Shown piece by piece: positions 2,312-61,146 of a DNA stretch of 64,000 bases. Position 1 is the stretch's first letter; each line of letters opens with the position of its first letter. Source of the stretch: Minisyncoccota bacterium (GTDB lineage Bacteria; Patescibacteriota; Minisyncoccia; Phycocordibacterales; Phycocordibacteraceae); assembly GCA_035548315.1 (NCBI GenBank), contig DASZTF010000010.1, positions 1,721-65,720 on the forward strand. Direction: 5' to 3'. The notes below the pieces were generated by a model. That model did not search any database and was not told the DNA's origin. It saw nothing but the letters and a program-made list of their open reading frames with translations. The translations under genes and the position numbers were made by a program.

Positions 2312-2724
2312 TGCACCTCGACCATCTACCGAAAATGCACAAGCCGGAGGAATTCAAGCGGTTTGGCGCGTTCATGGCACTACCGAAGGAGGAACGGATG
2401 CTCGTCTTTGGCTTTACAACCGAAAAGCAGTTCGCGGAGCATTTCAAGGTCAGACCGGCAACCCTATCGGAATGGAAGCAACGAGAGGACTTTTGGAGCG
2501 TCAGGGACGCCTATTTGGCCCCGTTTAGGGCACATACGGCCCAAGTGATAGAAGCCCTTGCGAAACGGGCAGAGCGCACTGGAGACGCTTATCAGGTACT
2601 CACCTTTCTCAAGGTCGTAGAGGGATTTTCAGACAAGGGAAATGCCTTTTCTCTGAAGCAGAGGAAGCCGCCCTTCCGGGTTGAAATCGTGCACAATTTA
2701 GACCAAGCGTGCGCCGCTACTTGA
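2311..2724 (+). CDS. hypothetical protein, possible HTH (island)
   Basis: 137-aa ORF; segment ...VRPATLSEWKQRED... resembles phage small HTH proteins; weak. Confidence 0.35.
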   Translation: MHLDHLPKMHKPEEFKRFGAFMALPKEERMLVFGFTTEKQFAEHFKVRPATLSEWKQREDFWSVRDAYLAPFRAHTAQVIEALAKRAERTGDAYQVLTFLKVVEGFSDKGNAFSLKQRKPPFRVEIVHNLDQACAAT

Positions 2725-4531
2725 AGTCGGCGACATCTCCGTATACCTCGAGGAAAAGAGGTGAGCCGGTGAAAGAGAGTGGGGAAATCGGTCCGAAGAA
2801 CATGAACGGGAATTTCCGATTACTGCTCGGGTCGATGAACGACTTGTAGAGCTGAATCGCTGATGGATTATTCACGAACTCGCTGACCTTTCGGAGCTCG
2901 GAACCAGAGGTTAGGCCGTAGCCGAAGCCGAAAATTCTCATCTGCCGCAAAATCTCATCATCCAAGGACTCGATGGTCTGTGTGATGAACATATAGCCAA
3001 TTCCATATTTTCGAGTCGTGCGTACTGAGCCGATGATTTCTTGGGTGAGCTCCTTGATGCGGGGGTCCTGCGAAGTTGTGGAGATGAATCGATGGGCTTC
3101 GTCCATGACGATAAGGCAGTTTGCCTTCTTTCCATCCGCATAGAGTTGAGCCCCGAGCTCGACGATTTTTGCCTCAATCGTTTTGATAAAGACTGCTTGG
3201 AGGTTTTCGTTTTGAATCTCGCCGACTTGAGTGCCACTGATGTCGAGCACGATAAAATTCCCGTTCTCCAACACAACTTTTTTGACGAGTTCTTCAACAG
3301 TGAGTTTGTTTGTCTGGTCCTCTCGATTCTTGGTAAAAAGCTCGAGCGCGTTTCCCCATTTGCGCGTGATATTGGTTTCAGAGGCCAAGTGGTCCCGAAC
3401 ATGCTCCAACCTGTTCTGGAGACGCGTGCGCGTTTGTGGAGTTCCAAATATCGATATTACATAGGAGGTGAATCCGTCGGCCGTCTCCCGAGGTCCGGTC
3501 GGGGTAATAAACCGATTCAGCAATTCTTGAAGAAGTGCGGTCTTATTGGTAATTGAATTGAGGTTGAACCCGGGGACATTGGCACGCCCGCGAAGATACT
3601 CGACAACCGCGTCTCGCGCGGCCTCGACCTTGTCCGGGGTGTAGAGAGGACGGAAGGCCAGCTCGAGGAAGCCGTTATTTGCGAGCAAGTCGCCCAACAG
3701 CTCAAAGTTATCGCCCGGAAGACAGATGTCTTTCAGTACCTCGTACTTTTCGTACTTCATCCCGGCTTTTGTGATGTGGTCCTCCAATTTCTGGTCCGGT
3801 GGTAGCAAGTCCTTATCGGCGAAAAATTGCCGTTGCGGGTCAAGTACCAAGATGCTCATATTGTTCTTGTTCTTTGCATAGCCGAGAAGCATATAGGCCG
3901 CGGAAACGGTCTTGCCGGACCCGGTCCTGCCGAAGACGCCGATGTGGTACGCATCGCCAGCGCCCGTTTCGTTGTTCTCCTCGTCTGTCTTATCGAAATG
4001 TTTGAACCAAAACGGCAAGTCGACATCTGTGCCATAAACTTTACCCATGTAGGTAATGTCGCCGTCATGTTTCTTCATCAAGGCGGTCATGACCTCGTTA
4101 TTCATTTTTTGCACGCGCTCGCCGGTGGATGGTGAGGTTCCCAAGATGTGCCCCTCGGGATTCTCGGTGCCCAAGTTGTAGCAGGCTTGGACGCTTATCG
4201 TGGCAACGCGGTTGTCGGCCGTGCCGCTCAAGTGTGGAAGGCGACCATGGCGCTTGATGACGCCCTTGAATGAAGGGTCCTCATGCCATCGATTTTGTGT
4301 CTCTATACCGATGATTTGCCCGATGACGAGGATGTTCTGCCCGTCCTCGTTCACGACCACATAGACCATCTGACCCAAAGCCCGCTCGGCTTTGCTTTTC
4401 TCGGAAATGTCGATGACTATGTCGAGCGTCGTGCTCGGCGAGCCGGTGATGCCGATGAGCGTATCATCCTGATTCTTTATGACTTCGAGAAGGCTCTCGG
4501 AGATGGTCGGGTTTTGCGGGTCGTTTGCCAT
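2717..4531 (-). CDS. HerA-like ATPase (FtsK-HerA superfamily, DUF87-type)
   Basis: 604 aa; Walker A GVFGRTGSGKTVS at ~aa 200 and Walker B LIVMDEAHRF (hhhhDEAH) at ~aa 470, the HerA spacing and motif style; low-GC island. Confidence 0.7.
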   Translation of the reverse strand: MANDPQNPTISESLLEVIKNQDDTLIGITGSPSTTLDIVIDISEKSKAERALGQMVYVVVNEDGQNILVIGQIIGIETQNRWHEDPSFKGVIKRHGRLPHLSGTADNRVATISVQACYNLGTENPEGHILGTSPSTGERVQKMNNEVMTALMKKHDGDITYMGKVYGTDVDLPFWFKHFDKTDEENNETGAGDAYHIGVFGRTGSGKTVSAAYMLLGYAKNKNNMSILVLDPQRQFFADKDLLPPDQKLEDHITKAGMKYEKYEVLKDICLPGDNFELLGDLLANNGFLELAFRPLYTPDKVEAARDAVVEYLRGRANVPGFNLNSITNKTALLQELLNRFITPTGPRETADGFTSYVISIFGTPQTRTRLQNRLEHVRDHLASETNITRKWGNALELFTKNREDQTNKLTVEELVKKVVLENGNFIVLDISGTQVGEIQNENLQAVFIKTIEAKIVELGAQLYADGKKANCLIVMDEAHRFISTTSQDPRIKELTQEIIGSVRTTRKYGIGYMFITQTIESLDDEILRQMRIFGFGYGLTSGSELRKVSEFVNNPSAIQLYKSFIDPSSNRKFPFMFFGPISPLSFTGSPLFLEVYGDVADFK

Positions 4532-4533
4532 GG

Positions 4534-5721
4534 TTAGGTTCGATAAGAGAATAATAGACCAAACTTCCCTTGGTCAATTTTTAGGTCGGGCGAGAGGCGG
4601 ATGGCGTCGATGATGGCGAACATGCCAGTCGAGATGCTTTTCGCCATAAGGTCCACGAGGTACTGCGGGTATGGCTCCCGTATCTCCGGGAAGATGATTT
4701 GCTTCTTCAAGCTCCCGAGATAGCGCTCGAGCTTCGCGGAGTCCGTCGCCACCGCCTTTTTCAACTCGACGCGATAAGCTGGCCCGTCCATATATGGCCG
4801 GTAATAAGTGTAGTAAAGCTCCGACTCCTTTCCTCCTTTCGTCGTTATGGGCGCGATGGCATTCTTGAGTGCCGTGTTGAGAGCGTCCTTTTCGGGGATA
4901 TCCAAACTGCAAGCGATGTGAAGTTCGTTCCATATTTTCTCCCGCTCCTGCTTACTCTGCCCGACCGAGTGCGGAACGAGATACTCGTCTTCCGCCAAGC
5001 CGAGCGAGAAAAAGGTCTTATCATCGAGCTTTATTTCGCAGTCAGAAAGGAAGGCGTCGATGATGTCGGTAGAGGAACTGTATTTCGCGAGGGCGATAAT
5101 ATGTTCGTTGTTCTGCGCCGCGGTGATGATGTCCGGGATATCAGGAATGATTTTCGAGTATGTCTCCCGCAAGAAGTCGCGGAGGGCGGCCGCGTATTCA
5201 GGACCCGCACCTTCTTCCTTAGCGGACAACATGCTGTTTATCTTGAGTATCGGAGTGAAATGCGTCCCGTCCATTATGCGAATTTCGTGGTCGTCGTTCG
5301 CCAAGACGCTGAGCTCCATTAGGAACATGACCCCCTGTATGAGCCGCGCGTTCGCTTCGCCATGAGGTAGAACAGTCTGCCATTGATAGTACTGATTCTT
5401 GTCGGCGCCCCACGCCGTATCCTTGTCTTCAGACAGACCTTCAACGCCCACGGCGACGGCAAGGAGGACATCGGCGCCCGCTAGCTTCTCCGGGATATTG
5501 CCGCCATCGACAGCAATCAATGAATGAGAAGGTTCTACATCGGAAAGCTTCTTGATTTTCCCGGCGGCACGCAATTTCTCCATGCCTTTCGCTATCGGTT
5601 CGTCCTGTATATCAAACAGGCCATTCATTTTGTCGACCGTGTTCGGCACGCTCTCAAGAATCTTGCCCAAGAGTTCATCGGGCAAATGGGCGTAATTCCG
5701 GCTTTCTCCCTGCGGTGGCAT
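4534..5721 (-). CDS. NurA-like nuclease (putative partner of HerA)
   Basis: 395 aa; N-terminal SLIAVDGGN motif resembles NurA motif I (catalytic Asp in hhhhDGS); 2-nt gap to the HerA-like gene; tentative. Confidence 0.4.
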   Translation of the reverse strand: MPPQGESRNYAHLPDELLGKILESVPNTVDKMNGLFDIQDEPIAKGMEKLRAAGKIKKLSDVEPSHSLIAVDGGNIPEKLAGADVLLAVAVGVEGLSEDKDTAWGADKNQYYQWQTVLPHGEANARLIQGVMFLMELSVLANDDHEIRIMDGTHFTPILKINSMLSAKEEGAGPEYAAALRDFLRETYSKIIPDIPDIITAAQNNEHIIALAKYSSSTDIIDAFLSDCEIKLDDKTFFSLGLAEDEYLVPHSVGQSKQEREKIWNELHIACSLDIPEKDALNTALKNAIAPITTKGGKESELYYTYYRPYMDGPAYRVELKKAVATDSAKLERYLGSLKKQIIFPEIREPYPQYLVDLMAKSISTGMFAIIDAIRLSPDLKIDQGKFGLLFSYRT

Positions 5722-5724
5722 AGG

Positions 5725-6882
5725 CTAAATGTTTTTTGCTAGTTCCTCACATCGCTCGAGGTCAGAGATGGCATTCTCGACTAAACGGGTCGTGTCGATG
5801 GTCCGGTATGTCGAGTCTTTCTCTGCGCGCGGTTTCGCCCATTTCTCCTTCCAAAACTCTGCTAGCTCGTCGACAGAACGCCGATGCCATTTAGGTCGCG
5901 CATTCTTCTGAATGACATCCTTTACATTGCTCGCAAGCGGAAACAAGTAGACCGCCCGTTCGATGCCGTGGCTTGTTCCGTTAGGGAATCCGAGAAGGTC
6001 GAGAGCTTGAAGTATCAAACGCATCTTGCGCGAAGGCCCATTCCCGAAGCCGCGGCCTACCTCGTATCCTTTTTGCTCCAAGAAAGCGACCAAGTCCTCA
6101 TAAAGCGCATTTGGAATATGGAAAGACCCGGTCCCCCGCGTATAGCCGATGAATCGGGCGACCTCTTGCTCGTTGAACTTCAATCGGGAATACACGGGGC
6201 TCTTGCCGTATGCGCCGGTCGTAGTGAGGAACAGGAGACGGGCCGGGAGCTCCCGATTTTTGAGGAGTGTCTTCTTGCCGCGGTATTTGTCGGCAAACTT
6301 CTTTCTCACAACCTCCGAAGTCATGAGAGAAGCAACGAGCTTCCCGCCCAAAATGTAGTTGTAGGGCGGTAGGGCGCCGAGTCGTTGAGCGCTAAGCGAT
6401 TGATTGACCCAAAAATCCCTTTCCTCTGCGGGAATGCCCAAATGCTCATCGCGGACGCTCCAACTAAGGATGGGGCTTTGCAAGCCGATAAGACCGATGG
6501 GGCTCTTGTGGTACTCGTCCCAAACGACGAACCGCATTTGCCGGCCGTAAGATTGTTCATACGGCAGGCTCCACCAAGTCAGGTTCCACCAACGGAAAAT
6601 TGTCTCCCACTTCGTCCCGGTCTGAACCTCTATAAGGCGCGGCTTGATTTTCTCAACCTCCAATTTCCTGCCGTTTATGAAATGTTCCTTGATAAGCGGA
6701 GCGTTCCTTTCAACAAAATCCCGATGGCGAACGAGTCGTTCGGCCTTTGCGAAACGATGCGCGTCTTTCTTTGCCTCCCGGTCGTCTTGCTTGAGCGTGA
6801 ATGTGCCGAGCCGGGTGCTGTATCCCTGCTTACGCAAGATGCTCAATACATCACGCTTCAGTCTTGTCGCAGTCAGGGCCAT
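5725..6882 (-). CDS. hypothetical protein, first gene of the X-NurA-HerA operon
   Basis: 385-aa ORF ending 4 nt before the NurA-like gene; Trp-rich segment KWETIFRWWNLTWWSLPY; no family recognised with confidence. Confidence 0.5.
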   Translation of the reverse strand: MALTATRLKRDVLSILRKQGYSTRLGTFTLKQDDREAKKDAHRFAKAERLVRHRDFVERNAPLIKEHFINGRKLEVEKIKPRLIEVQTGTKWETIFRWWNLTWWSLPYEQSYGRQMRFVVWDEYHKSPIGLIGLQSPILSWSVRDEHLGIPAEERDFWVNQSLSAQRLGALPPYNYILGGKLVASLMTSEVVRKKFADKYRGKKTLLKNRELPARLLFLTTTGAYGKSPVYSRLKFNEQEVARFIGYTRGTGSFHIPNALYEDLVAFLEQKGYEVGRGFGNGPSRKMRLILQALDLLGFPNGTSHGIERAVYLFPLASNVKDVIQKNARPKWHRRSVDELAEFWKEKWAKPRAEKDSTYRTIDTTRLVENAISDLERCEELAKNI

Positions 6883-6919
6883 GTGTCCAAATTATAGCGC
6901 GGGAGGTGCCCCGTGCCTT

Positions 6920-7141
6920 TTACCTAAGAAAGTAGTCGACACTCTTTCCATACATCTTCGCAAACCGCTTGAGCTCGACGACATCGACCCTCTGCTGACC
7001 TGTTTCGACATTCGAGATGTGCGATTGGGGCCTGTCGAGCTTCTTTGCGGCCTGAGTCTGCGTCAAGCCCGCTTCAAGGCGCGCCGTCTTGAGTCGTCCC
7101 ACAAAGACGGCGTACTCCTTCGTGTGGATTGACTTCTTCAT
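6920..7141 (-). CDS. XRE-family (Cro/CI-type) HTH transcriptional regulator
   Basis: 73 aa; LTQTQAAKKLDRPQSHISNVETGQQRVDVVELKRFAKMYG is a canonical XRE HTH. Confidence 0.8.
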   Translation of the reverse strand: MKKSIHTKEYAVFVGRLKTARLEAGLTQTQAAKKLDRPQSHISNVETGQQRVDVVELKRFAKMYGKSVDYFLR

Positions 7142-7167
7142 AGGATAAATGCTCTATCCAAGAAGTC

Positions 7168-7190
7168 AATATCCAAAATCTGGATATTGT
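7168..7190. promoter_or_regulatory. perfect palindrome caATATCCAaaatcTGGATATtg in divergent promoter region (candidate operator)
   Basis: 9-bp arms, 5-bp spacer, between divergently transcribed XRE gene and the zinc-ribbon/recombinase genes. Confidence 0.5.
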
Positions 7191-7204
7191 GATACGCTAA
7201 CTAT

Positions 7205-7489
7205 ATGGCTACGAAACAAATCCAATGCCCGAACTGCAAGGGCTTCAATACCACGAGTATTTCGCCTCGCGCCGTCGCACGGATGATTTCGGTCGGACTT
7301 ATCATTCTCGGCTCGGTTTTTTCAGTTTTCATCATCGGCCTCCTTATCGGGATACCGATGTTTCTCCTCGGGCTTGTCCTCCTCCTCGTTTCTTTCTTCC
7401 TGCCCGAAAATGGCCGGATGCGGTGCCGCCAATGCCACTTCGTCTTTATGGCCAATTCTCAGGGTGAGGCGGGTCAGAAGGTCCCCTAG
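7205..7489 (+). CDS. small membrane protein with zinc ribbon (CPNC...CRQC) and two TM helices
   Basis: 94 aa; CxxC pairs flank two hydrophobic helices. Confidence 0.45.
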   Translation: MATKQIQCPNCKGFNTTSISPRAVARMISVGLIILGSVFSVFIIGLLIGIPMFLLGLVLLLVSFFLPENGRMRCRQCHFVFMANSQGEAGQKVP

Positions 7490-7538
7490 AGTCCGTAGCA
7501 AAGCGTAATAAAATGGGGATACCGGGCCCGGTATTTCA

Positions 7539-9173
7539 ATGGCAGACCTCACCACCACAAAGGAGCTTTTCGATACCCTAAAGCGCTTCTACGACCCCAC
7601 GGACGCAGACAAGGCAAACAAGCCATTGCGGTATGTCATCTATGCTCGAAAGAGCACGGATGACAGCGATAAGCAGACTCGCTCCCTTGGCGACCAGATG
7701 AGCGAGTGCTTGGAGTTTGCCGACCGGCACAACCTCTTGCTTGGTCGTCCCGCGCAGATTCAGGAAGCTATTAGTGCGAAGGTGAGCGACAAACGACCCG
7801 GGTTCCGAAGAATGATTGAGGATATCAAGAAGGGTCAGTACGACGGGATTATTGCATGGCACCCCGACCGGCTCGCTCGCAATATGAAGGATGCCGGAGA
7901 AATCATCGACCTCCTCGATAAGGGAACGATTAGGGACCTGCAGTTCGTTAGCTTCAATTTCGATAACACGCCCTCCGGGAAAATGAGTCTCGGGATTCAA
8001 TTCGTGATGTCCAAGCAATATAGCGACCAACTTTCCGTGAATGTATCGCGCGGCATCAGTCATTCGATTGAAGATGCGGAGTATATCAATCGCCCCAAGC
8101 ATGGGTACTTCAAGGATGACCGCCAATATCTCCGCCCGGACGGCCGGAATCATGGCCTCATAAAGAGCGCTTTTCAGCTCCGCCGACAAGGACGCACATT
8201 CAAGCAAATTGCTGATTGGTTGAACTCTCAACACTACGAACGCGCTTATGTAGACGGCTCGCATAAGTCCTTCAATTGGCGTCCGCAAATGGTCCAAAGG
8301 ATATTGCGGGACCCGGCATACGCGGGTGTCGTCGCGTATGGCGAGGGCCATCTTGTTGACCTGACAGAGGCTTACGACTTCGTTCCGGCCGTATCGGTGG
8401 CAGAGTTTTTCGAGTTGAATAATCTCCGTGGCGGAAACAAAGAACTCGCCAAGCTTGCACGCTCGTACCGCAAGGGAGACTCCATAAAAGCCGACCTCAT
8501 GCGCGGCATGGTGTATTGCTCTGAATGCGGCGAGCCCCGTTCTGCCGGCATTACCCGCAAGAAAGAAAAGGGTGGGACCACAAATTATTTTTATTATCGA
8601 TGCGAGACTCCCGGTTGCAAGCTCCGAAATCGGTCTACTCGAGCAAAGGTAGTGGTAGATTTCGTGAAAGCATTTCTTAGCAAGAAGCCTTTTTCTTCCA
8701 AGAAGGCATACGAACATTACGCGGCTGAGATGAAGCGTATAGAAGCGATGCGTGCGGAGGACAGGCGTGCATTACTAAGGACCCTTCAAGGAAAGGAAAA
8801 ATCACTTGCCTCTAAGCGAGAGCGCATCAAAGAATTCATTATCGACGAACAGAACCATGAATTCAGGGACGGCTTCAAGGGCGACCTTCTCAAGGCAGAG
8901 AAGGAGCATGAGGAAGTGCAAGCCGAAATCAAAAAGCTAAAGACGGCAATCGAGGCCGAAAAGAGCGCTATCCTCCTGATGCCGGAATTTCTCGAACAAA
9001 TGGATAAAATCGCCCAGATTATAGCTTCCCCGAAGAACATGCAGGAGCTCGACTTCTGCATCAAAAAGATGTTCTCGAACTTTTCGGTAGACCAAAAAAG
9101 CGTAGTATCTGCAACGCTCTCCGAGCCGTTCGCCCGACTCAAGGACCCGAAAGTTGCTTTAGGTGCGCGGTGA
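7539..9173 (+). CDS. large serine recombinase (integrase)
   Basis: 544 aa; resolvase N-terminal motif YVIYARKSTDDSDKQTRSLGDQ (Ser nucleophile), recombinase domain, zinc ribbon CSECGEP...YYRCETPGC, C-terminal coiled coil. Confidence 0.85.
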   Translation: MADLTTTKELFDTLKRFYDPTDADKANKPLRYVIYARKSTDDSDKQTRSLGDQMSECLEFADRHNLLLGRPAQIQEAISAKVSDKRPGFRRMIEDIKKGQYDGIIAWHPDRLARNMKDAGEIIDLLDKGTIRDLQFVSFNFDNTPSGKMSLGIQFVMSKQYSDQLSVNVSRGISHSIEDAEYINRPKHGYFKDDRQYLRPDGRNHGLIKSAFQLRRQGRTFKQIADWLNSQHYERAYVDGSHKSFNWRPQMVQRILRDPAYAGVVAYGEGHLVDLTEAYDFVPAVSVAEFFELNNLRGGNKELAKLARSYRKGDSIKADLMRGMVYCSECGEPRSAGITRKKEKGGTTNYFYYRCETPGCKLRNRSTRAKVVVDFVKAFLSKKPFSSKKAYEHYAAEMKRIEAMRAEDRRALLRTLQGKEKSLASKRERIKEFIIDEQNHEFRDGFKGDLLKAEKEHEEVQAEIKKLKTAIEAEKSAILLMPEFLEQMDKIAQIIASPKNMQELDFCIKKMFSNFSVDQKSVVSATLSEPFARLKDPKVALGAR

Positions 9174-27073: not shown

Positions 27074-28078
27074 ATGTCAACCCCTCCCCAGGAAAATGCT
27101 AAGGTAGCCGACCAGCAATTGGACGCTGCACTGCGCCCCTCGTCCTGGGATGAATACGCCGGCCAGGCACATGTGAAAGCAAATGTGCGCATCGTCATCG
27201 ACGCCGCGCGACGCCGTAGCGGCATGCCCGAGCACTTTCTTTTCTACGGACCGCCAGGCGTTGGGAAAACGACCCTCGCGCACCTCATCGCGGTGTCGCT
27301 CGAAGCGCCGGTAAAGACGACTTCCGGTGTCGCGATCGAGCGCGCGGGCGATCTGGCCGCGATCCTCACCAACCTCGAGCCAAACACGGTGCTGTTTATC
27401 GATGAAATCCATCAGCTCTCACGCAAAATTGAGGAGCTCCTCTACCCCGCGCTTGAGTCCGGCCATCTCGACATCATCCTTGGTAAAGGGCCGTCCGCGC
27501 GCACGGTGGAACTCGCGCTCCCGCCGTTCACCCTCGTGGGTGCGACGACGAAAGTCGCCTCACTCTCTTCCCCACTGCGTTCGCGCTTCGGCGGTGGCGT
27601 ATACCAGCTCGATTTCTACTCAGACGAGGACATGCAGATGATTATCAAGCGCTCTGCAAAGAAACTCGGTCTCAAAGTGCCCGACGAAGTCATTGAAATG
27701 ATTGCGGCGCGCAGTCGCGCGACCCCGCGCATCGCGAATGCACTTCTCAAGCGCGTGCGCGACTTCTCAGAAGTGCAGGAACGTCCGATCACGCCAGAAC
27801 TCTGCGACGAAGCATGCAAACTGTTCGGCATCGATGAGCTCGGCCTTACCAAGGACGACCGCCGCTATCTTGAGACACTCGAGAAAGGATTCCGCGGTGG
27901 CCCGGCCGGCATCCGCGCCTTGGCAAGTTCCATGCATGAAGACGAGGAAACACTCGAGATGGTGTATGAGCCGTATCTCCTGCGCCTCGGGTTCATCGAG
28001 CGCTCGCTGCGCGGTCGTATGCTCACCCAAAAAGGCCACGCGTATCTAAAAGGTGAAGGTACTGAGACACTCCTATGA
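27074..28078 (+). CDS. ruvB: Holliday junction DNA helicase RuvB
   Basis: start moved to MSTPPQ; Walker A GPPGVGKTTLA, Walker B LFIDEIH, RuvB C-terminal winged helix. Confidence 0.9.
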   Translation: MSTPPQENAKVADQQLDAALRPSSWDEYAGQAHVKANVRIVIDAARRRSGMPEHFLFYGPPGVGKTTLAHLIAVSLEAPVKTTSGVAIERAGDLAAILTNLEPNTVLFIDEIHQLSRKIEELLYPALESGHLDIILGKGPSARTVELALPPFTLVGATTKVASLSSPLRSRFGGGVYQLDFYSDEDMQMIIKRSAKKLGLKVPDEVIEMIAARSRATPRIANALLKRVRDFSEVQERPITPELCDEACKLFGIDELGLTKDDRRYLETLEKGFRGGPAGIRALASSMHEDEETLEMVYEPYLLRLGFIERSLRGRMLTQKGHAYLKGEGTETLL

Positions 28079-28527
28079 ATCAGAGAGAGGTTGAGCAGCT
28101 AGTCGATTATATCGCTGAGCATGGCGCTAAGGCCCTTACTGAGAAAACCAACTCTCCCGCCGCCCTCGACTACGTAGCAGTTTTTAGCAAGAACTCAGCG
28201 GAGTTCGAGGAACTACTTGCATGTGCAAAGACGCTCGGAGAGGAGGTCGACAGCCTGACACAGAAAACTGGCCACACATTTAAGCTGCGTGCGCCGATGC
28301 ATACGTTAGTCGGCGACCTCTCCTTGCTTAAGGTAAGGAGGCCAGACATCACGAGGCCGCAGCGAGGAGCTCCCGATTTTGTCGTACCCGATTATGAAGG
28401 ATTCAAGAAAACGTATCTACCGACCAGCGGCGATTTCACCCTCATGTTTCATCCGCACGCAGAGATGGTCGAATTGAAAGGTGACGATGTTCTTGTGTAT
28501 ATTAAGGAACGACATTTAACTCTTTAG
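28075..28527 (+). CDS. hypothetical protein
   Basis: 150-aa ORF overlapping the ruvB stop; no recognisable motif. Confidence 0.4.
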   Translation: MNQREVEQLVDYIAEHGAKALTEKTNSPAALDYVAVFSKNSAEFEELLACAKTLGEEVDSLTQKTGHTFKLRAPMHTLVGDLSLLKVRRPDITRPQRGAPDFVVPDYEGFKKTYLPTSGDFTLMFHPHAEMVELKGDDVLVYIKERHLTL

Positions 28528-29907: not shown

Positions 29908-32040
29908 ATGGCGCGCAAGCACCACCCCATCCGCGATCCGCACCCCGTGCTGAAAATTGTGTTCTTCGCTGTCGGCATCGGACTCGTGCTCGGCGCGCTC
30001 GGCATCCTCTGGATCGCGCTCACCCCTACCCCGGACCTCTCCTCGTTTGAAAATCGTAAGATCACTGAGTCGACCAAGATCTACGACCGCACCGGCACCA
30101 CCGTGCTCTACGACCTCGACACCGACGCCAAGCGCGATAGCGTCTCGCTCTCCGATATCGCACCCAATGTCCAGCACGCGACGATCGCTATCGAGGACGC
30201 TGGGTTCTACCAGCACGGTGGCATCAGCATCACGGGCATCATCCGCTCGCTCATCGCAGACATATTCTCAGGAGGGTTCAGCCAGGGCGGGTCCACCATA
30301 ACCCAGCAGGTGGTGAAGAACACGCTGCTTACCGGTGATAAAAGCATCTCGCGCAAGATCCATGAGTGGATCCTCGCGATCAAACTGGAACAGGTGTACA
30401 GCAAAGACCAAATCCTCGAGTTCTACCTGAACGACACGCCCTACGGCGGCCCCTACTACGGCGTGGAGGCAGCGTCGGAAGCGTTCTTCGGCAAGTCCGC
30501 GAAGGATGTCGACCTCGCAGAGGCCGCATACCTCGCCGCGCTCCCCCAGGCACCCACCTACTACTCGCCGTATGGCGATAACCGCGCCGCGCTCGACGCA
30601 CGCAAGAACACCGTACTCGACCGCATGCTCGAGCTCGGCTACATCACGCAGGACGAGCGCGACCAGGCGAAGGCAGAAGTAGTGGCGTTCAACCCGCAGT
30701 CATCATCCTCCATCATCGCGCCGCACTTCGTCTTCTACATCGAGCAGTACCTCGAGAATAAATACGGGCCAGACGCCGTCGATAGCGGGCTCAAGGTGAT
30801 CACCACGCTCGATACCGACCTCCAGCACGATGTGGAGACCACCGTCGCGCAGTACGCACCGGGGAATCTCAAGAATTTCAAAGCAAGCAATGAAGCCGTC
30901 GTGGCAATCGATCCCAAGACCGGTCAGATACTCGCGATGCTCGGTAGTAAGAATTACTTCGACCCGACAATCGACGGTAATTACAACTCCGCGCTGGCTA
31001 ATCGCCAGCCAGGATCGTCCTTCAAGCCATTCGTGTATGCGGCTGCGCTCGCCAAGGGCTACACGCCAGACACGGCGATATTCGACTTGCCCACGCAGTT
31101 CTCCACCTCCTGCTCGCCGACCGACAACACGAACGACACCCCGCCCTGCTATTCTCCGAGCGACTACGATGGAAAGTTCCGTGGCCCGATGACATTCACC
31201 ACCGCGCTCGCGCAGTCGATCAACGTCCCGGCGGTGAAGGTGCTCTACCTCGCGGGTATCCAGAACGTGATCAATCTCGCCACCGCTGCGGGTATCAGTA
31301 CGCTCGACACACCCGCGCACTACGGCCTCTCGCTCGCGCTCGGTGCGGCAGAAGTGAAACTGCTCGATCTCACCGACGCCTACGCGACGCTCGCGAATGG
31401 CGGCGTACATAATCCGCCGACCGGCATCCTCTCGGTCACGGACGCAAGCGGCAATGTGCTCGAGCAGTACCAGCCCCAGCAGACACAGGTGATCGACCCG
31501 AGTGTGGCCGCGGGTGTGTCGTCGATGCTCTCGAATAACGCAGCACGCTTCCCCGAATATCCACCGGATAACCCGCTCAATTTCAGCGGCTACGACGTGG
31601 CCGTGAAGACGGGTACGACGAACGACTACCGCGACGCATGGACCGTGGGCTACTCGCCGAACATCGTGATCGGTGCGTGGGCGGGTAACAATGACAACAG
31701 CCCGATGGTGAAGGAAATCGCAGGGTACATCGTGGCGCCGATGTGGCACGCCATCATGGCGCAGGCGCTCGCCAAGTATCCGGTCGCATATTTCGACCAG
31801 CCACCAGCCACGCCGCAGGATGCAAAGCCCGTGTTCTTCGGTAACTACTCCGCGAGCGGCGTCCACAGCCTGCTCTACTATGTGAACCGCAGCGATCCCA
31901 CCGGCCCCACGCCGTCATTCCCCGCGAGCGATCCGCAGTACACCTACTGGGAATACCCTGTCCAGCTCTGGGCCGCTGGCAATCCCGGCGCTGCGCAGCA
32001 GAATCAAAACCAGTTCACCTCAACTACGACCGGTCAGTAG
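29908..32040 (+). CDS. penicillin-binding protein 1A (bifunctional transglycosylase/transpeptidase)
   Basis: 710 aa; N-terminal TM, GT51 motifs (EDAGFYQHGG, TITQQ), transpeptidase SxxK/KTG motifs. Confidence 0.85.
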   Translation: MARKHHPIRDPHPVLKIVFFAVGIGLVLGALGILWIALTPTPDLSSFENRKITESTKIYDRTGTTVLYDLDTDAKRDSVSLSDIAPNVQHATIAIEDAGFYQHGGISITGIIRSLIADIFSGGFSQGGSTITQQVVKNTLLTGDKSISRKIHEWILAIKLEQVYSKDQILEFYLNDTPYGGPYYGVEAASEAFFGKSAKDVDLAEAAYLAALPQAPTYYSPYGDNRAALDARKNTVLDRMLELGYITQDERDQAKAEVVAFNPQSSSSIIAPHFVFYIEQYLENKYGPDAVDSGLKVITTLDTDLQHDVETTVAQYAPGNLKNFKASNEAVVAIDPKTGQILAMLGSKNYFDPTIDGNYNSALANRQPGSSFKPFVYAAALAKGYTPDTAIFDLPTQFSTSCSPTDNTNDTPPCYSPSDYDGKFRGPMTFTTALAQSINVPAVKVLYLAGIQNVINLATAAGISTLDTPAHYGLSLALGAAEVKLLDLTDAYATLANGGVHNPPTGILSVTDASGNVLEQYQPQQTQVIDPSVAAGVSSMLSNNAARFPEYPPDNPLNFSGYDVAVKTGTTNDYRDAWTVGYSPNIVIGAWAGNNDNSPMVKEIAGYIVAPMWHAIMAQALAKYPVAYFDQPPATPQDAKPVFFGNYSASGVHSLLYYVNRSDPTGPTPSFPASDPQYTYWEYPVQLWAAGNPGAAQQNQNQFTSTTTGQ

Positions 32041-32041
32041 G

Positions 32042-32614
32042 TTAGTTGCTTCTAGCAGCCGCCTTCTTCCAACCACCTCTAAGAGTCAGCGAGTCTGGTT
32101 TCTGGTAAATAATTTTGGCCATACTTATTAATTTCTGATTGACGGTCAACCCCCATCCCTTCATGCCACCGTTCCAATACTTCAAGGCCATAAATTGATC
32201 CCAAGTTAGCTCAAGGATTAAGTCTGCCTGTAGGTCCCGGTCGAGGACAACAATTACCACGTACTCGAATTTCTGTTCTGTCGGTTCTTGATGACTTTCG
32301 GCAAGACCGGCAAATATTCCCGTGTTCACGGTCTTTTGCGAAACAGTTTTTATGGTATACCGCTTCCCCTCTCCACTAAGAGCGTCGACGTTCTTAGTTA
32401 GCTCTCGTGCTGCTTGGAGTTTCGGGAGGCCTATTGTCTCTTTGTAAGCCTTTATCGCCAGAAACTCTCCGCGCTCGCCTGTTATATTGCGCGTTCGGAC
32501 CAACTTTCTATCCCTTAACTCTTGAACTAGGTGCGCGTATAAACCCCAAACCGTATCATCAGAAACTTTTGCTACTTCCTTCTTCAAATTCTCGAGTTCG
32601 AGATTTTTGCTCAT
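32042..32614 (-). CDS. hypothetical protein, low-GC single-gene insertion (possible nuclease fold)
   Basis: 190 aa; ~45% GC versus ~62% flanks; ATG overlaps dnaN stop (ATGA); no confident family assignment. Confidence 0.5.
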   Translation of the reverse strand: MSKNLELENLKKEVAKVSDDTVWGLYAHLVQELRDRKLVRTRNITGERGEFLAIKAYKETIGLPKLQAARELTKNVDALSGEGKRYTIKTVSQKTVNTGIFAGLAESHQEPTEQKFEYVVIVVLDRDLQADLILELTWDQFMALKYWNGGMKGWGLTVNQKLISMAKIIYQKPDSLTLRGGWKKAAARSN

Positions 32615-33711
32615 TGATTCATCGGCATTACTAAGTAGAGGAAGGAGGCGTCGCCTTGGCCACGGATGACGAGGGGGCGCCCGATACCGCCTGAGGAGAG
32701 GGTGAGGTTCTCGGTAGAGATGAGCGGGAGCGGCGCGGCGAGGTACCGGTGGTTGAATGAGAGCTCGACTCCCTCCCCCGTGGTGGCTGCAGCGATGTCC
32801 TCACTCGACTCGCCCACGTCGGAATTGCGCGAGGAGAACACAAGGTGCTTGCCTTTTATATCGAACCCAAGCCGCACCTTCTGGAATGAGTCTGAGAACA
32901 CCGACACGCGGCGCACTGCCGCTTCAAAGTCCTTCCGGAGCACCGTCGCTTCCGCAGCAAAGTGCTTCGGGATGATCTGGGTGTAGTCCGGGTACTGCGC
33001 CGCGACGAGGCGCGTCGTGATCACCCCTCCCTTCCATGCGCACGCGCACTGGTGTTCATCCACCGTGAGAGTCACGTCTACACCCTCTGGAAGCGTCCCT
33101 AGGATGTCTGCCGCATTCTTTGCAGGGATGAGTACTTTAAATGGTTTACCGCCCTTTTCCGCCGGAATTTTCTTCTCTGAGAGGCGGAATGAGTCTGATG
33201 CCGCCGCGATAAGCATGCCGCCCTCGCTCGCAAGCATCACACTCGCGAGTTCTGGGCGCACGGTGGAGGTCGACGCACACGCTACTACCGAGCCGATAAG
33301 GCTCCCGAGCGTGCTCGAGGGTAGGGTGAAAGTGAGGTCGCCGGACTTGGGTATAGGAATGACTGGGAAATCCTCGGCGGGGAGTGTCTTGAGGGTGCTT
33401 TTCCCCGCGCCCGTGATGACGGCAGTGTCCCCCGCGTGCTCGATGGTGATAGAGCCCGAGCCGGAAAGAGATCCTGCCACCTCGCGGAGGATATTGGCCG
33501 GGAGTACCATCACTCCCTCACTCTTGATCAAGCCCTCGACCCGCAGGTCGATACCGGTCTCGAGGTTCGTAGCGCGCATTTTGATGCCGTCATCCCCTGC
33601 GACAATCGCAATGCCTGAAAGCGCAGGAAGGGTCGCCGAGCGCCGCTCCGCGAATCGAGCTGCGATGTGGACTGCGTCTTTGAATGCATTTTTTTCTATA
33701 GTGATAACCAT
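32611..33711 (-). CDS. dnaN: DNA polymerase III beta sliding clamp
   Basis: 366 aa, three-domain clamp; position downstream of dnaA. Confidence 0.85.
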   Translation of the reverse strand: MVITIEKNAFKDAVHIAARFAERRSATLPALSGIAIVAGDDGIKMRATNLETGIDLRVEGLIKSEGVMVLPANILREVAGSLSGSGSITIEHAGDTAVITGAGKSTLKTLPAEDFPVIPIPKSGDLTFTLPSSTLGSLIGSVVACASTSTVRPELASVMLASEGGMLIAAASDSFRLSEKKIPAEKGGKPFKVLIPAKNAADILGTLPEGVDVTLTVDEHQCACAWKGGVITTRLVAAQYPDYTQIIPKHFAAEATVLRKDFEAAVRRVSVFSDSFQKVRLGFDIKGKHLVFSSRNSDVGESSEDIAAATTGEGVELSFNHRYLAAPLPLISTENLTLSSGGIGRPLVIRGQGDASFLYLVMPMNQ

Positions 33712-33927
33712 ACCTATGTTTATTATTAGGGGTGTTGATATGGGGAGAACCCAATTTCACGGCTTATTTCCAAGCTATCCTGGCGACTCTCTATTTGATA
33801 ACTCACGGAAAGAGCTGGGACAGCACTGGGGAAACTTTCACCCGACCCCATGGTCCTTAGAAAACCCCTCATTTCTTCCCCACCCGTTTTCATCATTGTC
33901 CGCAGGTTTTCCATACCATTATCCCCA
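33712..33927. promoter_or_regulatory. candidate oriC / DnaA-box region (AT-rich dnaA-dnaN spacer)
   Basis: 216-bp AT-rich spacer with DnaA-box-like 9-mers ttatcccca (33919-33927), ttttccata (33907-33915), ttgtccgca (33896-33904). Confidence 0.4.
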
Positions 33928-35274
33928 TCATACCAACAGCCCACGCACGTTCTGTATCTCCTTCGCAAGCACGGCGTCCTCGGCTACCTCCTTCTTTATT
34001 TTCTCGCAGGAGTGGATCACGGTCGTGTGGTCCCTACCCCCGAGCTTGGTCCCGATCGCGGGATAAGAGACGTTGAAGTCCTCGCGCAGGATGTACATGA
34101 TCACCTGGCGCGGGCGCACAATCTCCTTACGCCGTGTCTTTTCATAGATCGATTCCTCATCGATGCCGTAGAATTCCGCCACCTTCGATACTACGTTCTT
34201 AATCGACACCGTCTTTGCAGGGCGCGAGAAGGAGCGCAGCGACTGGCGGATCTCAGCGAGATCGGGCGCGGTACCCTTCACCTGCGCGTGGCACACCACT
34301 GAATTGATCACACCCTCGAGTTCGCGGATCGAACCTGGGACCGAGGTCGCGATGTACTCGATGACGTCTTCCCCAAGCGTAATGCCATGGATAGCGACCT
34401 TTTTCCGTACGATGGCGATGCGGCTCTCAGTATCGGGTTCCCCGATATCGATGGTCATACCGCTCGCGAGGCGCCCGCGCAGGCGCTCGGCGATATCAGG
34501 GATGGACGCGGGCGATCTATCGGACGAGAAGATGATCTGCTTGTTGTTGTCGTAGAGGGCGTTGAAGAGGTGGAAGAGCTCCTCCTGCATTTTTTCTTTC
34601 TTCGAGAGGAACTGGATGTCGTCCATGATAAGGAGGTCGTACTGGCGGTACTTCTCCTTGAAACGGTTGGCGGTACCGGAGCCGATCGAGTCGGTGTAGT
34701 CGACGCCGAACTTCTCCGAGGTGAGATAGAAGACCTTTCTGTTGGGATAGAGCTTCTTGTACTGGTTCCCGATGGCCTGGATGAGGTGGGTCTTACCGCG
34801 CCCCGTGTCTCCGTAGAGGAAGAGTGGGTTGTAGGTGATCCCGGGGCGGTTGATCGCTGCCTCTGCTGCCTTGTACGCGAGTTCATTAAAGGCGCCGATC
34901 ACGAACGTATCGAAGGTGTAGCGGGGGTTGAGGTTGTCGCTCTTATTAATATAGAACTCGTCGAGCGGGAGTTTGCTCTCTTCTCGGGAGACCTTTACTT
35001 CCTTGGGTTTGCGGCGGTCGTCTTTGACGATGAGGTACTCGATATTGCGGTACTCATACGACACGGTGCGGACGATCTTGAGAAGGAGGGTATGAAACTT
35101 CCGGAGGTACCAGTCCCGGAAGAACTGGCTCGGGACGCCTACGTAGACGATGCCGTCCTCGATTTTCACTATGGAGGAGTCGCGGAACCAGGTGTTGAAG
35201 TTCGCTGGACTGACCGAGAGCTCTACCTGGGTGAGCATATGTTCCCAGAGTTCTCGAGGGTCGGAGCGATTCAT
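33928..35274 (-). CDS. dnaA: chromosomal replication initiator DnaA
   Basis: 448 aa; AAA+ Walker [11 protein letters not shown] and C-terminal DnaA-box-binding domain. Confidence 0.9.
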
Positions 35275-59539: not shown

Positions 59540-60334
59540 ATGCGTATCGCTTCCTGGAATGTGAACGGCATCCGCGCCGTGCACCGCAAGGGTCTCTTTG
59601 TGCCGTTCGTACATAAAGTAAAGCCAGACATTATCTGTCTCCAGGAGACCAAGGCAAAAGAAGATCAGTCAGAAGTCGACCTCCCCGACTACCACGAGTA
59701 CTGGAATTCTGCAGAGAAAGCTGGCTACAGCGGCACCGCGATTTTCTCTAAAGAAGAGGCGCTCGATGTGCGTCTCGGGCTCCCCGATGACCTCGCGGAG
59801 AAGTACGGCCTCCATACCGATTCGTATGGCGACCCCAACTCCGAGGGCCGCGTGATCACTGCGGAATATGAAGATTTCTTCGTCGTGAGTGCGTACACGC
59901 CAAACGCCAAGCCCGACCTATCTCGCCTCTCGCTCCGCCACACGCAGTGGGATCCAGCGTTCCTTGAATATATGAAGCGCTTGGAAGAAGATAAGCCGGT
60001 GGTGTTCTGTGGCGATCTCAACGTCGCGCATATGGAAGACGACCTCGCGAACCCTAAATCCAATAAAGGCGAACACGGGTTCACCGATGAAGAGCGCGAG
60101 GGCATCGACCTCATACTCGGTGCCGGATTCGTGGACACCTTCCGCCTCTTTCACCAGGGCAAGGGTTTCTATACCTGGTGGAGCCACTTCGGCCATGCGC
60201 GCGAGCGCAACGTGGGCTGGCGCATCGACTACATATTCGTGAGCAAGGCGCTCAAGAATAAAGTAAAGAAAGCAGCAATCTACCCCGACCTCCTCGGCTC
60301 CGACCACTGCCCTGTCTCTGCGGATATTGCCTAA
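59540..60334 (+). CDS. xth: exodeoxyribonuclease III (AP endonuclease)
   Basis: 264 aa; MRIASWNVNGIRA start and conserved SDHCPV C-terminus. Confidence 0.9.
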   Translation: MRIASWNVNGIRAVHRKGLFVPFVHKVKPDIICLQETKAKEDQSEVDLPDYHEYWNSAEKAGYSGTAIFSKEEALDVRLGLPDDLAEKYGLHTDSYGDPNSEGRVITAEYEDFFVVSAYTPNAKPDLSRLSLRHTQWDPAFLEYMKRLEEDKPVVFCGDLNVAHMEDDLANPKSNKGEHGFTDEEREGIDLILGAGFVDTFRLFHQGKGFYTWWSHFGHARERNVGWRIDYIFVSKALKNKVKKAAIYPDLLGSDHCPVSADIA

Positions 60335-61146
60335 GACTTAACCCGCGCTAAGCGCGCGTCGAATATTGTATCCTCGGCTAGCGCCAATGTTTCAACGGTG
60401 CTGAATCCAGCAGATCGTAGTGAAGATTCAAGCTCCGGGAATGTGAGATCGTAGGATACATTCGGTGTCGCCAAAATAGTTCCATCTTCTTGCTCGCGCA
60501 CCATCGATGCGTTGCGTATTTTCTGTTCGGGGAGTCGCTCGGTCCAGAAGATAAGTTTTTGCTTCCCTTCGCCTGGTGCCGTTATTTCCGCTACTTGGTC
60601 TCGATGGGAATGTTCCTCATCTTTAAATTTGTCGATGTACAGGAGACCACCAGGCCTGAGTAGTTTTTTAAATATATCGGCCGTTTCAGCATAGGTAGCA
60701 AGTGCTGTAGCTGGATCAATGGAAATGTCGCTATTCCAGCCCCCAAGTGCGTATACGAACGAGTTGCCGCGGCACAAAATTAAATCGTATGAGTTCGATT
60801 CGTATGCCGAAAGCAAATCTTTCCAGAGAACTTGTTTTGCCACAGAAGAAAGACCCCGCTCAGTCGCGCGCCTGTTGTACAGAGCCACTTCGTCCGCGAA
60901 TCCATCAGAGCTCTCTACGTTGTAACCCCGCTTTATAAGTTCAAGAGACGGGAATCCGCCGCCTGCGGCGACGTCGAGTATCTTTGAATCTTTGGTAATA
61001 CCGTTTGCGGCGAATACGGTTTCAAGCTCGTCACAATATGCGCGCTCATTATAGAGAAATTTATATACACACATCTCCCACAACTCAGCGAATGTGGGTT
61101 TGTGATCGAAGCGCTCAATATTTTTATGATTTGGTATTGATTCCAT
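60331..61146 (-). CDS. class I SAM-dependent methyltransferase
   Basis: 271 aa; SAM motif I ILDVAAGGGFPSLEL. Confidence 0.8.
   Translation of the reverse strand: MESIPNHKNIERFDHKPTFAELWEMCVYKFLYNERAYCDELETVFAANGITKDSKILDVAAGGGFPSLELIKRGYNVESSDGFADEVALYNRRATERGLSSVAKQVLWKDLLSAYESNSYDLILCRGNSFVYALGGWNSDISIDPATALATYAETADIFKKLLRPGGLLYIDKFKDEEHSHRDQVAEITAPGEGKQKLIFWTERLPEQKIRNASMVREQEDGTILATPNVSYDLTFPELESSLRSAGFSTVETLALAEDTIFDARLARVKS

Follow-up and report, generated by a model that had tools for sequence, protein, structure and literature searches.

Restriction endonucleases of the BisI family cleave only GCNGC-type sites that carry two or more 5mC or 5hmC residues (Xu 2016, Szafran 2024). In these enzymes, a glutamate of helix alpha1 has a catalytic role and an internal-methyl-binding dipeptide of the form (H/R)(V/I/T/M) lies near the C-terminus. 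In NhoI, Asn42 reads the central minor groove, and Arg84 of the external-methyl pocket is replaced by Thr or Val in about half of the BisI members (PMC11347163). Most BisI-type enzymes are solitary, and it has been proposed that their genes are disseminated singly by horizontal transfer (PMC4926085). The nearest classical enzyme according to the authors of the BisI work is PvuII (PMC11347163), a Type IIP enzyme (CAG^CTG) that is paired with an N4-cytosine methyltransferase (MTase). The same core fold and dimer-type architecture are found in the catalytic domain of the Type IIM enzyme DpnI (Gm6ATC), which carries a winged-helix methyl sensor in addition.

A 190-aa hypothetical protein of Candidatus Paceibacterota is probably a stand-alone, modification-dependent restriction nuclease related to these enzymes. 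Its gene lies in a 64-kb stretch of DNA, which was analysed as a whole and is called the window in the following.

Position and origin of the predicted endonuclease gene

The protein is encoded on the minus strand by an ORF with an ATG start at 32042..32614, between dnaN and the gene for a PBP1A-type protein, as the first-pass annotation of this DNA had described. With a GC content of 0.459 and a GC3 of 0.497, it has the lowest GC among the 63 long ORFs of the window, in which GC averages 0.573 (sd 0.043) and GC3 0.657 (sd 0.076). The flanking genes have GC contents of 0.596 (dnaN) and 0.606 (PBP1A). Upstream and in the same orientation, dnaN (32611..33711, minus strand) encodes the 366-aa beta clamp of DNA polymerase III, which matches the Pfam families DNA_pol3_beta, _2 and _3 and is 51-75% identical to its orthologues in 80 related species. 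The convergent downstream neighbour (29908..32040, plus strand) encodes a class A penicillin-binding protein of the PBP1A type (710 aa), which has the Pfam domains Transgly and Transpeptidase and lies in conserved synteny.

The gene is packed tightly between these neighbours. Its stop codon (32042-32044) is separated from the end of the PBP1A gene (32040) by 1 nt (32041) and not by 2 nt as noted earlier, while the reported overlap of its ATG with the dnaN stop codon is found at 32611..32614 (minus strand) as an ATGA. The coding strand reads AAT CAA TGA at this site, with the ATG embedded in the end of dnaN (caATGa). In the relatives, DnaN ends with the same C-terminus, LYLVMPMNQ*, and the stop codon is TAG or TAA; TGA is found in the window only. 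The ATGA overlap implies that the endonuclease gene would be co-transcribed and translationally coupled with dnaN. No sigma70-like promoter was detected in 31700-34200, and scans of the locus for promoters, terminators and DnaA boxes yielded no signals beyond those expected by chance.

The order of dnaA and dnaN, followed by the convergent PBP1A gene, is kept in all 80 related Paceibacteria species, and none of these (0/80) has the endonuclease gene in the slot between dnaN and PBP1A; in the closest relative, the two genes are separated by a 5-nt spacer only. Orthologues with host-like composition at the same position in most relatives, set in advance as the finding that would speak against a foreign gene, were searched for and did not turn up. 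The endonuclease gene is thus a horizontally acquired insertion, in agreement with the first-pass annotation. Its GC content matches that of the contigs that carry relatives from the same subclade (0.44-0.46), and its GC3 of 0.50 lies between the values of these relatives (0.34-0.43) and of the host (0.66), which is consistent with retention in the host for some time.

The expectation that a small conserved gene would usually occupy this slot was borne out in part: a DciA-like gene of about 83 aa is found there in 34 of the 80 relatives, and no match to it was obtained in the 64-kb window. The window ORF is not related to any occupant of the slot in the relatives and is neither DciA/DUF721-like nor recF. 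Other defence candidates are among the occupants of the slot in the relatives.

Family, fold and active site

The protein had been described as lacking a recognisable family, which does not hold. Residues 9-174 match positions 4-168 of the 172 positions of the PADLOC mREase_II profile PDLC03205 (E=4.9e-46, 154.4 bits), and thus the match is full-length. This profile represents a REBASE-derived cluster named 'Type II methyl-directed restriction enzyme', a label that is based on homology and is itself a prediction; no biochemical assay of any member of the PDLC03205 clade was found in the literature, and the RefSeq name is 'hypothetical protein'. The relatives score 145-202 bits against the profile, with the subclade that contains the window protein (145-159) below the main clade (185-202). 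The characterised enzyme Eco15I also matches PDLC03205 (E=1.8e-12) and is in turn the PDB entry found with a profile of the window-protein family (E=5e-5), and a comparison of profiles by hhalign connects this family to the characterised BisI enzymes with a probability of 95.4% (E=1.7e-8). Single-sequence searches with the window protein gave no match in NCBIfam, in PHROGs or, by phmmer, in the PDB, and no homologue was found in phage records. The Pfam family DUF6998 (PF22522), apparently the Pfam model for the BisI fold family, is matched with 17.3 bits (E=0.0046), below its gathering cut-off of 27 bits, which is passed by Eco15I (39.2 bits) and by the subclade member P0007 (32.3 bits).

The AlphaFold (AF2) model of the protein has a pLDDT of 88.9. 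When it was compared with known structures by Foldseek, the top 11 matches were all chains of NhoI or Eco15I, the best of them with E-values of 1e-9 to 1e-7 and target-normalised TM scores of 0.72-0.80 (0.77-0.80 for those at E~1e-9), followed by DpnI and then PvuII (E 4e-5 to 1e-3). The model has the PvuII-like PD-(D/E)XK protomer fold with the upstream dimerisation helix alpha0. The earlier suggestion of a small nuclease-like fold is thereby supported, and the peptide segments on which it had been based are present in the translation. With PvuII and DpnI the window protein has no match at the level of sequence, and the methyl sensor of DpnI is absent. The BisI family is the best structural as well as the best profile match; by these comparisons, the 190-aa protein is a remote (12-19% identity to the tested BisI enzymes) but clear relative of this structurally solved family. 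Features shared with it include the size of 150-190 aa, the fold, the N-terminal dimerisation helix and a solitary, single-gene, horizontally mobile lifestyle. An extra N-terminal helix of the window protein is one of the differences.

All 34 residues that are invariant in the family are kept in the window protein, including Glu50, Asp77 and Lys89. These three residues and Asn43 do not vary within the clade and correspond in the alignment to Glu50, Asp70, Lys82 and Asn42 of NhoI, so that the alpha1 glutamate, the 'PD' aspartate, the lysine of the QxK motif and the linker asparagine of BisI enzymes are all present. Glu50 (codon at 32465..32467, minus strand), the predicted catalytic glutamate of alpha1, aligns with the corresponding residues of NhoI and Eco15I and is found in 79 of 79 main-clade sequences and in each of the four subclade sequences of full length; a fifth subclade sequence, P0088, lacks part of its N-terminus. 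Asp77 is encoded at 32384..32386 (minus strand), and its distance to the following motif, D-X9-(Q/S/T)xK, is identical to that in NhoI and Eco15I. This motif, Thr87-Ile88-Lys89 (32348..32356, minus strand), is a variant of QxK with Lys89 as the predicted catalytic lysine. The metal-binding Gln is replaced: Thr87 takes this position in the window protein, Ser in 75 of 79 main-clade sequences and Ala in three subclade members. Since the Q72A variant of Pam7902I keeps partial activity (PMC8281217), the missing Gln is no sign of inactivity. Asn43 (32486..32488, minus strand) lies in the linker between alpha0 and alpha1, within the sequence RTRN.

The residues that read the methyl groups in BisI enzymes are less well conserved. 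Gly150-Met151 (32162..32167, minus strand) align with the internal-methyl dipeptide His139-Val140 of NhoI, but do not correspond to the BisI motif; Gly150 is outside the permitted (H/R), and Met151 is permitted at the second position. The main clade has T-M (67 sequences) or R-M (8) at this site and the window subclade G-M. Val91 aligns with Arg84 of NhoI; this position is Ile or Val in the clade, which fits the Thr/Val alternative of the external-methyl pocket and is not diagnostic. For the beta-strand that carries Ser98 and Arg101 in NhoI and has a role in recognition, no reliable alignment to the window protein was obtained. Due to the remote identity, the Thr in place of Gln, the G-M dipeptide and this unalignable strand, the sequence does not allow a dependence on 5mC or a GCNGC target to be deduced.

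Restriction cassettes around the relatives

Published BisI homologues are mostly encoded without a companion MTase (PMC4926085), whereas most relatives from the clade of the window protein are found inside cassettes with C5 MTases and Vsr. A C5 MTase is located within 2 kb of the nuclease gene at 28 of 40 well-flanked family loci (about 70%), and 12 of the 40 have neither an MTase nor Vsr. The neighbouring MTases are apparently active, with the PCQ and ENV motifs kept in 48 of 49 full-length sequences. Many cassettes encode a classical restriction enzyme of their own, which belongs to another family and is HpaII-like (3e-103), HaeII-like (4e-130) or HinP1I-like (3e-88), and the small nuclease is highly conserved across these cassettes. 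REBASE-type restriction-modification (R-M) subunits are present in some cassettes. One conserved nuclease could not be protected by MTases of at least three specificities and must therefore tolerate these MTases.

The clade might be a dedicated companion module of m5C R-M/Vsr cassettes (a 'second blade') or be functionally coupled to Vsr, with the deep-branching, solitary subclade, characterised by G-M and T/A-x-K, having evolved a new recognition or modification specificity by which it can act on its own in CPR bacteria. We regard this as rather unlikely. If true, the second blade would cut cytosine-hypermodified DNA that escapes the methylation-sensitive HpaII-, HaeII- or HinP1I-like enzyme of the cassette.

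Vsr is encoded at 32 of 87 family loci and at 18 of the 40 well-flanked ones. Where present, it directly adjoins the small nuclease in either gene order, mostly with -8 to +3 nt between the two genes in 22 measured pairs, and this pairing is also found on plasmids of Rhizobium and Sinorhizobium. The tight adjacency hints at a Vsr-linked role and is left unexplained by a function in defence. It has to be considered that the nuclease is not mainly a defence enzyme and instead assists in the maintenance or repair of m5C together with Vsr, for example by processing T:G or 5-methylpyrimidine sites, and that the window copy is a stray with reduced or changed function. BisI-family enzymes tolerate T in place of 5mC, including T:G mispairs (PMC11347163), which would fit such a role. 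Nevertheless, it appears improbable: more than half of the family loci are without Vsr, genes are closely spaced in these compact genomes in general, the literature searches gave no precedent, and the window contains neither Vsr nor a C5 MTase, although the gene is intact and belongs to a subclade that is under purifying selection in solitary contexts.

The cassettes also bear on the idea that the protein is a classical, modification-blocked Type IIP enzyme whose protective MTase is encoded elsewhere in the genome. The PvuII-like fold would be compatible with this, as small dimeric Type IIP enzymes have this appearance, and so would the C5 MTases near 70% of the family members, the lack of conservation of the BisI methyl-pocket dipeptide and the scope of the MTase search, which covered about 64 kb of the genome. 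It is nonetheless a poor candidate, because many cassettes already have a separate classical enzyme or REBASE-type R-M subunits beside the conserved small nuclease, no MTase is found at 30% of the well-flanked loci or in any context seen for the subclade, and the arrival of a lone classical enzyme by insertion of a single gene would kill the recipient. For the family as a whole, the cassette anatomy with its separate classical enzymes rules out that the nuclease is the cognate restriction enzyme of the adjacent C5 MTase. A classical GCNGC enzyme of the Bsp6I/Fnu4HI type, which came into consideration by the size of R.Bsp6I, about 174 aa, was rejected; no restriction enzyme family of Pfam or NCBIfam was matched, and the classical enzymes identified in the cassettes are others.

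Solitary state and proposed mode of action

No C5 MTase and no Vsr were detected in the 64-kb window with locally built HMMs even at E<=10, and all contexts seen for the window subclade are solitary as well. The gene thus lacks a linked cognate MTase within the window, which agrees with the BisI family and not with classical Type II R-M systems, and its description as a solitary restriction-like gene was upheld. Within the subclade, pN is 0.22-0.34 and pS about 0.9; synonymous sites are saturated, so that dN/dS was not computable and only pN and pS were compared. By this comparison, the subclade is under purifying selection.

The earlier proposal of an orphan from a decayed element, meaning an inactive remnant with no current function, is difficult to reconcile with these results. 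For a remnant, one would expect a lone foreign gene that lacks partners, the Thr or Ala in place of the metal-binding Gln and the truncation of P0088, which adjoins a transposase-like ORF. However, the ORF is full-length with all family-invariant residues, pN values in the subclade are much smaller than pS, the gene is precisely packed with its start overlapping the dnaN stop, the Gln is dispensable in Pam7902I (PMC8281217) and the intermediate GC3 fits retention for some time, all of which leaves a remnant with little probability. A solitary toxin or abortive-infection nuclease, which would attack the DNA of its host upon a trigger and not in a sequence- and modification-specific manner, is very improbable: relaxed specificity, with nicking or cleavage of unmodified DNA, is described for some BisI homologues, for which self-killing has been suggested (PMC8281217, PMC4926085), and the slot carries other defence candidates in relatives, but an antitoxin or sensor partner is missing, constitutive coupling to dnaN would be dangerous for a toxin, and of the PADLOC models mREase_II was matched and those for Abi and TA systems were not.

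The window protein is best read as an intact, selected and solitary modification-dependent restriction endonuclease with a predicted activity. With moderate confidence, we favour a BisI-superfamily endonuclease of the PDLC03205 clade, which was acquired by single-gene transfer, is coupled to dnaN and acts as a stand-alone barrier to cytosine-modified DNA. According to this model, the gene would have been gained horizontally from a donor of lower GC content and inserted where dnaN and the PBP1A gene converge, into a spacer of 5 nt that is a site of variable cargo in this Paceibacteria clade. It would now be expressed from the dnaA-dnaN transcript through translational coupling. The product, a small PvuII-like PD-(D/E)XK endonuclease, would probably be a homodimer that clamps duplex DNA without base flipping, as NhoI and Eco15I do, and reads a short symmetric site together with the 5-methyl groups of modified cytosines. 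Both strands would then be cut inside the site with Glu50, Asp77, Lys89 and Mg2+. A partner MTase would not be needed since the host would make no such modification. In this way, the enzyme may form a stand-alone barrier to incoming DNA with (hyper)methylated cytosines, either from phages with 5mC or 5hmC or from DNA marked by foreign m5C methyltransferases.

On this reading, the gene is an ordinary kind of defence gene; the relatives in its branch are mostly found together with restriction cassettes that methylate cytosine. The habit of these relatives, which combines a C5 MTase, a classical restriction enzyme and Vsr with the small nuclease, had not been reported before and leads to the testable idea of dual-mode restriction, in which one enzyme would cleave unmodified DNA and the second one hypermodified DNA. 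In this clade of Paceibacteria, accessory and defence genes have repeatedly been inserted at the dnaN/PBP1A junction beside the replication genes. BisI-type enzymes are useful epigenetic tools, and a clade with a variant active site and a variant methyl pocket could give new specificities.

An inserted gene between dnaN and PBP1A

The window gene is a 190-aa ORF on the minus strand (32042-32614); its product is identical to a protein deposited as "hypothetical protein VHC20_00380", which stems from a MAG of Candidatus Paceibacterota. The first-pass annotation had described a lone, low-GC, apparently foreign gene between dnaN and PBP1A, and this observation as a whole was confirmed. Both neighbors are supported by precomputed Pfam matches (three DNA_pol3_beta domains for DnaN, Transgly and Transpeptidase for PBP1A), and the proposed overlap of the ATG with the dnaN stop codon is visible on the coding strand (...AAT CAA TGA, with the ATG embedded as caATGa). 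The convergent stop codons of the window gene and PBP1A do nearly abut, but the gap is 1 nt instead of the 2 nt originally given, with a single base between the end of PBP1A (29908-32040, plus strand) and the stop codon of the window gene. With a GC content of 45.9% and a GC3 of 49.7%, the gene has the lowest GC of the 63 long ORFs of the window (mean GC 57.3%, sd 4.3; mean GC3 65.7%, sd 7.6); the flanking genes dnaN and PBP1A have 59.6% and 60.6%, respectively.

The window gene has been inserted at this position. When one genome per GTDB species was scanned with DnaN, 80 related Paceibacteria loci were obtained with DnaN identities of 51-75% to the window DnaN, in which the gene order YidC-DnaA-DnaN-><-PBP1A-YebC-RuvB is conserved. 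A homolog of the window ORF was found in none of these 80 loci by tblastn (1e-5) and profile search, so that orthologs at the same position, as for a core gene, are absent. In the closest relative, L002 (DnaA 92%, DnaN 75% identical), the stop codons of dnaN and PBP1A are 5 nt apart. The DnaN C-terminus LYLVMPMNQ* is identical in the window and the relatives; the stop codon is TAG or TAA in the relatives and TGA in the window only, which gives rise to the ATGA overlap.

The slot is variable, with a gap between dnaN and PBP1A of 0-4.7 kb across 77 relatives. In 34 of the 80 relatives, dnaN is directly followed by a DciA-like gene of about 83 aa (e.g., L012:5512-5766, L013:7107-7361, L052:7223-7474) that the Pfam DciA model matches weakly (19 bits, under the cut-off) and that is found neither in the window nor in L002. 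Unrelated cargo, mostly of low GC, occupies the slot in about 25 relatives (examples of slots between the ends of dnaN and PBP1A are L015:7101-11811, L010:7101-9787, L079:7103-8661, and L069:7109-7786); PNPOx, DedA/VTT, NUDIX, SDR, and DKNYY genes were among those sampled. Defense candidates also occur as cargo, namely a PDC-M43A/B pair in L079 and a DUF4145/PD-T7-4-like gene in L069. The dnaN/PBP1A junction is a cargo hotspot in Paceibacteria, of which no report was found in the searchable literature.

Elsewhere in the window, GC is lower in a block at 2311-9173 (0.51-0.53 vs. a window mean of 0.57), which is probably an integrated mobile element. It contains the genes of a large serine recombinase (7539-9173) and of a HerA/DUF87-type ATPase with weak similarity to T4SS coupling proteins (2717-4531), as well as two unannotated ORFs. 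The ORF with the second-lowest GC (60331-61146, minus strand; GC 0.475, GC3 0.474) may also be foreign; its only matches are weak ones to families of small-molecule SAM methyltransferases (TehB, Methyltransf_31), and the HMM for C5 DNA methyltransferases does not match it. A 150-aa ORF between ruvB and yebC (28075-28527, plus strand; GC 0.503) overlaps the ruvB stop and has no Pfam match; in relatives, the equivalent YebC-RuvB spacer is often variable. In the dnaA-dnaN intergenic region (33712-33927), GC dips to 48-51%. The window shows no enrichment of consensus DnaA boxes (TTATCCACA, at most 1 mismatch; 9 vs. 6.6 expected), and one match lies in this intergenic region at 33919-33927.

Family, fold, and active site

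The earlier statement that the protein belongs to no recognizable family proved wrong. It is matched over its full length by the PADLOC mREase_II model PDLC03205 ("Type II methyl-directed restriction enzyme"; E=4.9e-46) and also by three sister models. Pfam yielded DUF6998 alone, below threshold, and searches with the single sequence against NCBIfam, PHROGs, and PDB gave no matches. Among 5.8 billion proteins, 165 homologs were found; apart from the identical record they share 46-69% identity, and all are unnamed or "hypothetical". An exhaustive search of 1.84 billion cluster representatives with the family profile returned 501 matches at E<=1e-3, 260 at E<=1e-10, and 68 at E<=1e-30, and the family is small.

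A profile built from 40 homologs matched Eco15I (8q5m) in PDB over almost its whole length (E=5e-5), and its hhalign comparison with NhoI and Eco15I, the two solved 5mC-dependent endonucleases of the BisI family, gave a probability of 95.4% (E=1.7e-8). The AlphaFold2 model is confident (pLDDT 88.9, pTM 0.84), and Foldseek ranked NhoI and Eco15I first in PDB (E~1e-9, target-normalized TM 0.77-0.80), followed by the DpnI catalytic domain and PvuII. This order is expected, because PvuII has been named the classical enzyme nearest to the BisI family (PMC11347163). For calibration, the characterized Eco15I was run against the same models: its best PADLOC model was PDLC03212, PDLC03205 also matched (1.8e-12), and it exceeded the Pfam DUF6998 cut-off (39 vs. 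27 bits). PDLC03205, PDLC03212, and DUF6998 all describe one superfamily.

Residues were mapped using NhoI numbering recovered from the PDB chain and published residue roles (PMC11347163). The minor-groove reader Asn42, the catalytic Glu50 of helix alpha1, the "PD" aspartate Asp70, and the catalytic Lys82 correspond to family-invariant residues (Asn43, Glu50, Asp77, and Lys89 in the window protein), and the D-X9-xxK spacing is that of NhoI. The window protein is full length and retains all family-invariant residues. The QxK metal ligand Gln80 is replaced by Ser in 75 of the 79 main-clade sequences and by Thr or Ala in the small subclade of the window protein (Thr87). The Q72A variant of Pam7902I retains partial activity (PMC8281217), and replacement of this Gln therefore does not imply inactivity. 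By this mapping, the nuclease machinery is conserved.

The residues reading methyl groups and sequence, in contrast, are conserved in part only, and the methyl-pocket residues differ from those of the solved BisI enzymes. Arg84 of the external-methyl pocket corresponds to Ile or Val (Val91 in the window protein), a position occupied by Thr or Val in about half of the BisI members (PMC11347163). The internal-methyl dipeptide His139-Val140 is T-M (67) or R-M (8) in the main clade and G-M in the subclade (Gly150-Met151), compared with the BisI motif (H/R)(V/I/T/M) (PMC11347163). The alignment of the NhoI Ser98/Arg101 strand to the family is unreliable.

Companion genes and proposed role

We consider it fairly probable that the window gene was acquired alone, is expressed together with dnaN, and encodes a solitary restriction endonuclease that depends on DNA modification (BisI-like, Type IIM/IV). 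Three homologs (about 50% identical) lie in operons between a C5 methylase and Vsr; the classical restriction-modification reading of these operons was corrected by a wider sample of 80 metagenome loci plus the earlier loci, which were searched for MTase and Vsr genes with custom-built HMMs. In the 40 loci flanked on each side by 1.5 kb or more, a C5 MTase lies within 2 kb in 28, of which 18 also have Vsr; the other 12 have neither. Published BisI homologs, in contrast, are mostly without a companion MTase, and BisI itself adjoins an inactive one (PMC4926085). A three-gene candidate defense system, PDC-M33A/B/C, recurs beside the BisI-like gene (E=2e-94, 1e-44, 8e-36), both with the MTase/Vsr cassette (L083:9298-12741) and without it (L158:1250-5000), and also in L091 and L097.

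Vsr, where it occurs, is always directly adjacent to the BisI-like gene, in both gene orders; the adjacent pairs that were measured are mostly spaced by -8 to +3 nt. This tight adjacency would fit a Vsr-linked role of the family in repair or maintenance, which comes first in a rough ranking of the alternatives, as would the acceptance of T:G instead of 5mC:G known from BisI enzymes, but solitary copies that are still under selection do not fit it.

A classical REase with a distant MTase is disfavored. The part of the genome inspected comprised no more than about 64 kb, with no C5 MTase or Vsr in the window even at E<=10 with the same HMMs, but the cassette anatomy speaks against this explanation. 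Many cassettes have their own classical REase of another family (HpaII-like, 3e-103; HaeII-like, 4e-130; HinP1I-like, 3e-88), and the PCQ and ENV motifs are kept in 48 of 49 full-length MTases. The family nuclease cannot be the cognate, methylation-blocked REase of the cassette MTases, because one conserved nuclease coexists with apparently active m5C MTases of at least three specificities. It must target modification patterns its hosts do not make or have a non-restriction role.

In a neighbor-joining tree, MTase-linked and solitary members are intermixed in the main clade, and the window protein falls into a small deep branch with the homologs P0002, P0003, P0007, and the truncated P0088. 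All contexts seen in this subclade are solitary: P0003 is flanked by an RNase H-like gene and superoxide dismutase, P0007 by a Cys-rich protein and a membrane protein. At 44-46%, the GC of their contigs is in line with that of the window gene. In P0088 (L170:498-947), the N-terminal helices are missing, the GERGE catalytic helix among them; its neighbors are a SEC-C protein and a transposase-like ORF, and it has the appearance of a decaying copy from the same gene lineage. Within the subclade, pN is 0.22-0.34 and pS is saturated at about 0.9; the protein is therefore under purifying selection. An inactive remnant is accordingly disfavored, the window gene being intact and under selection. An abortive-infection toxin is the least probable explanation, as no partner is present and a toxin constitutively coupled to dnaN would be hazardous.

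As a solitary BisI-like endonuclease, the window protein would clamp duplex DNA as a dimer, depend on 5-methyl or 5-hydroxymethyl cytosine, and cleave inside the site. Its gene may be expressed by coupling to dnaN, because of the ATGA overlap and since no sigma70-like promoter was found close by. A horizontally acquired defense gene as such is unsurprising, and the protein is a divergent addition to the predicted Type IIM/BisI-like enzymes already in PADLOC. Its clade is habitually found with cassettes of C5-MTase, classical REase, and Vsr, a pairing of which no report was found in the searchable literature. This association suggests dual-mode restriction, which would shut the escape route of hypermodification.
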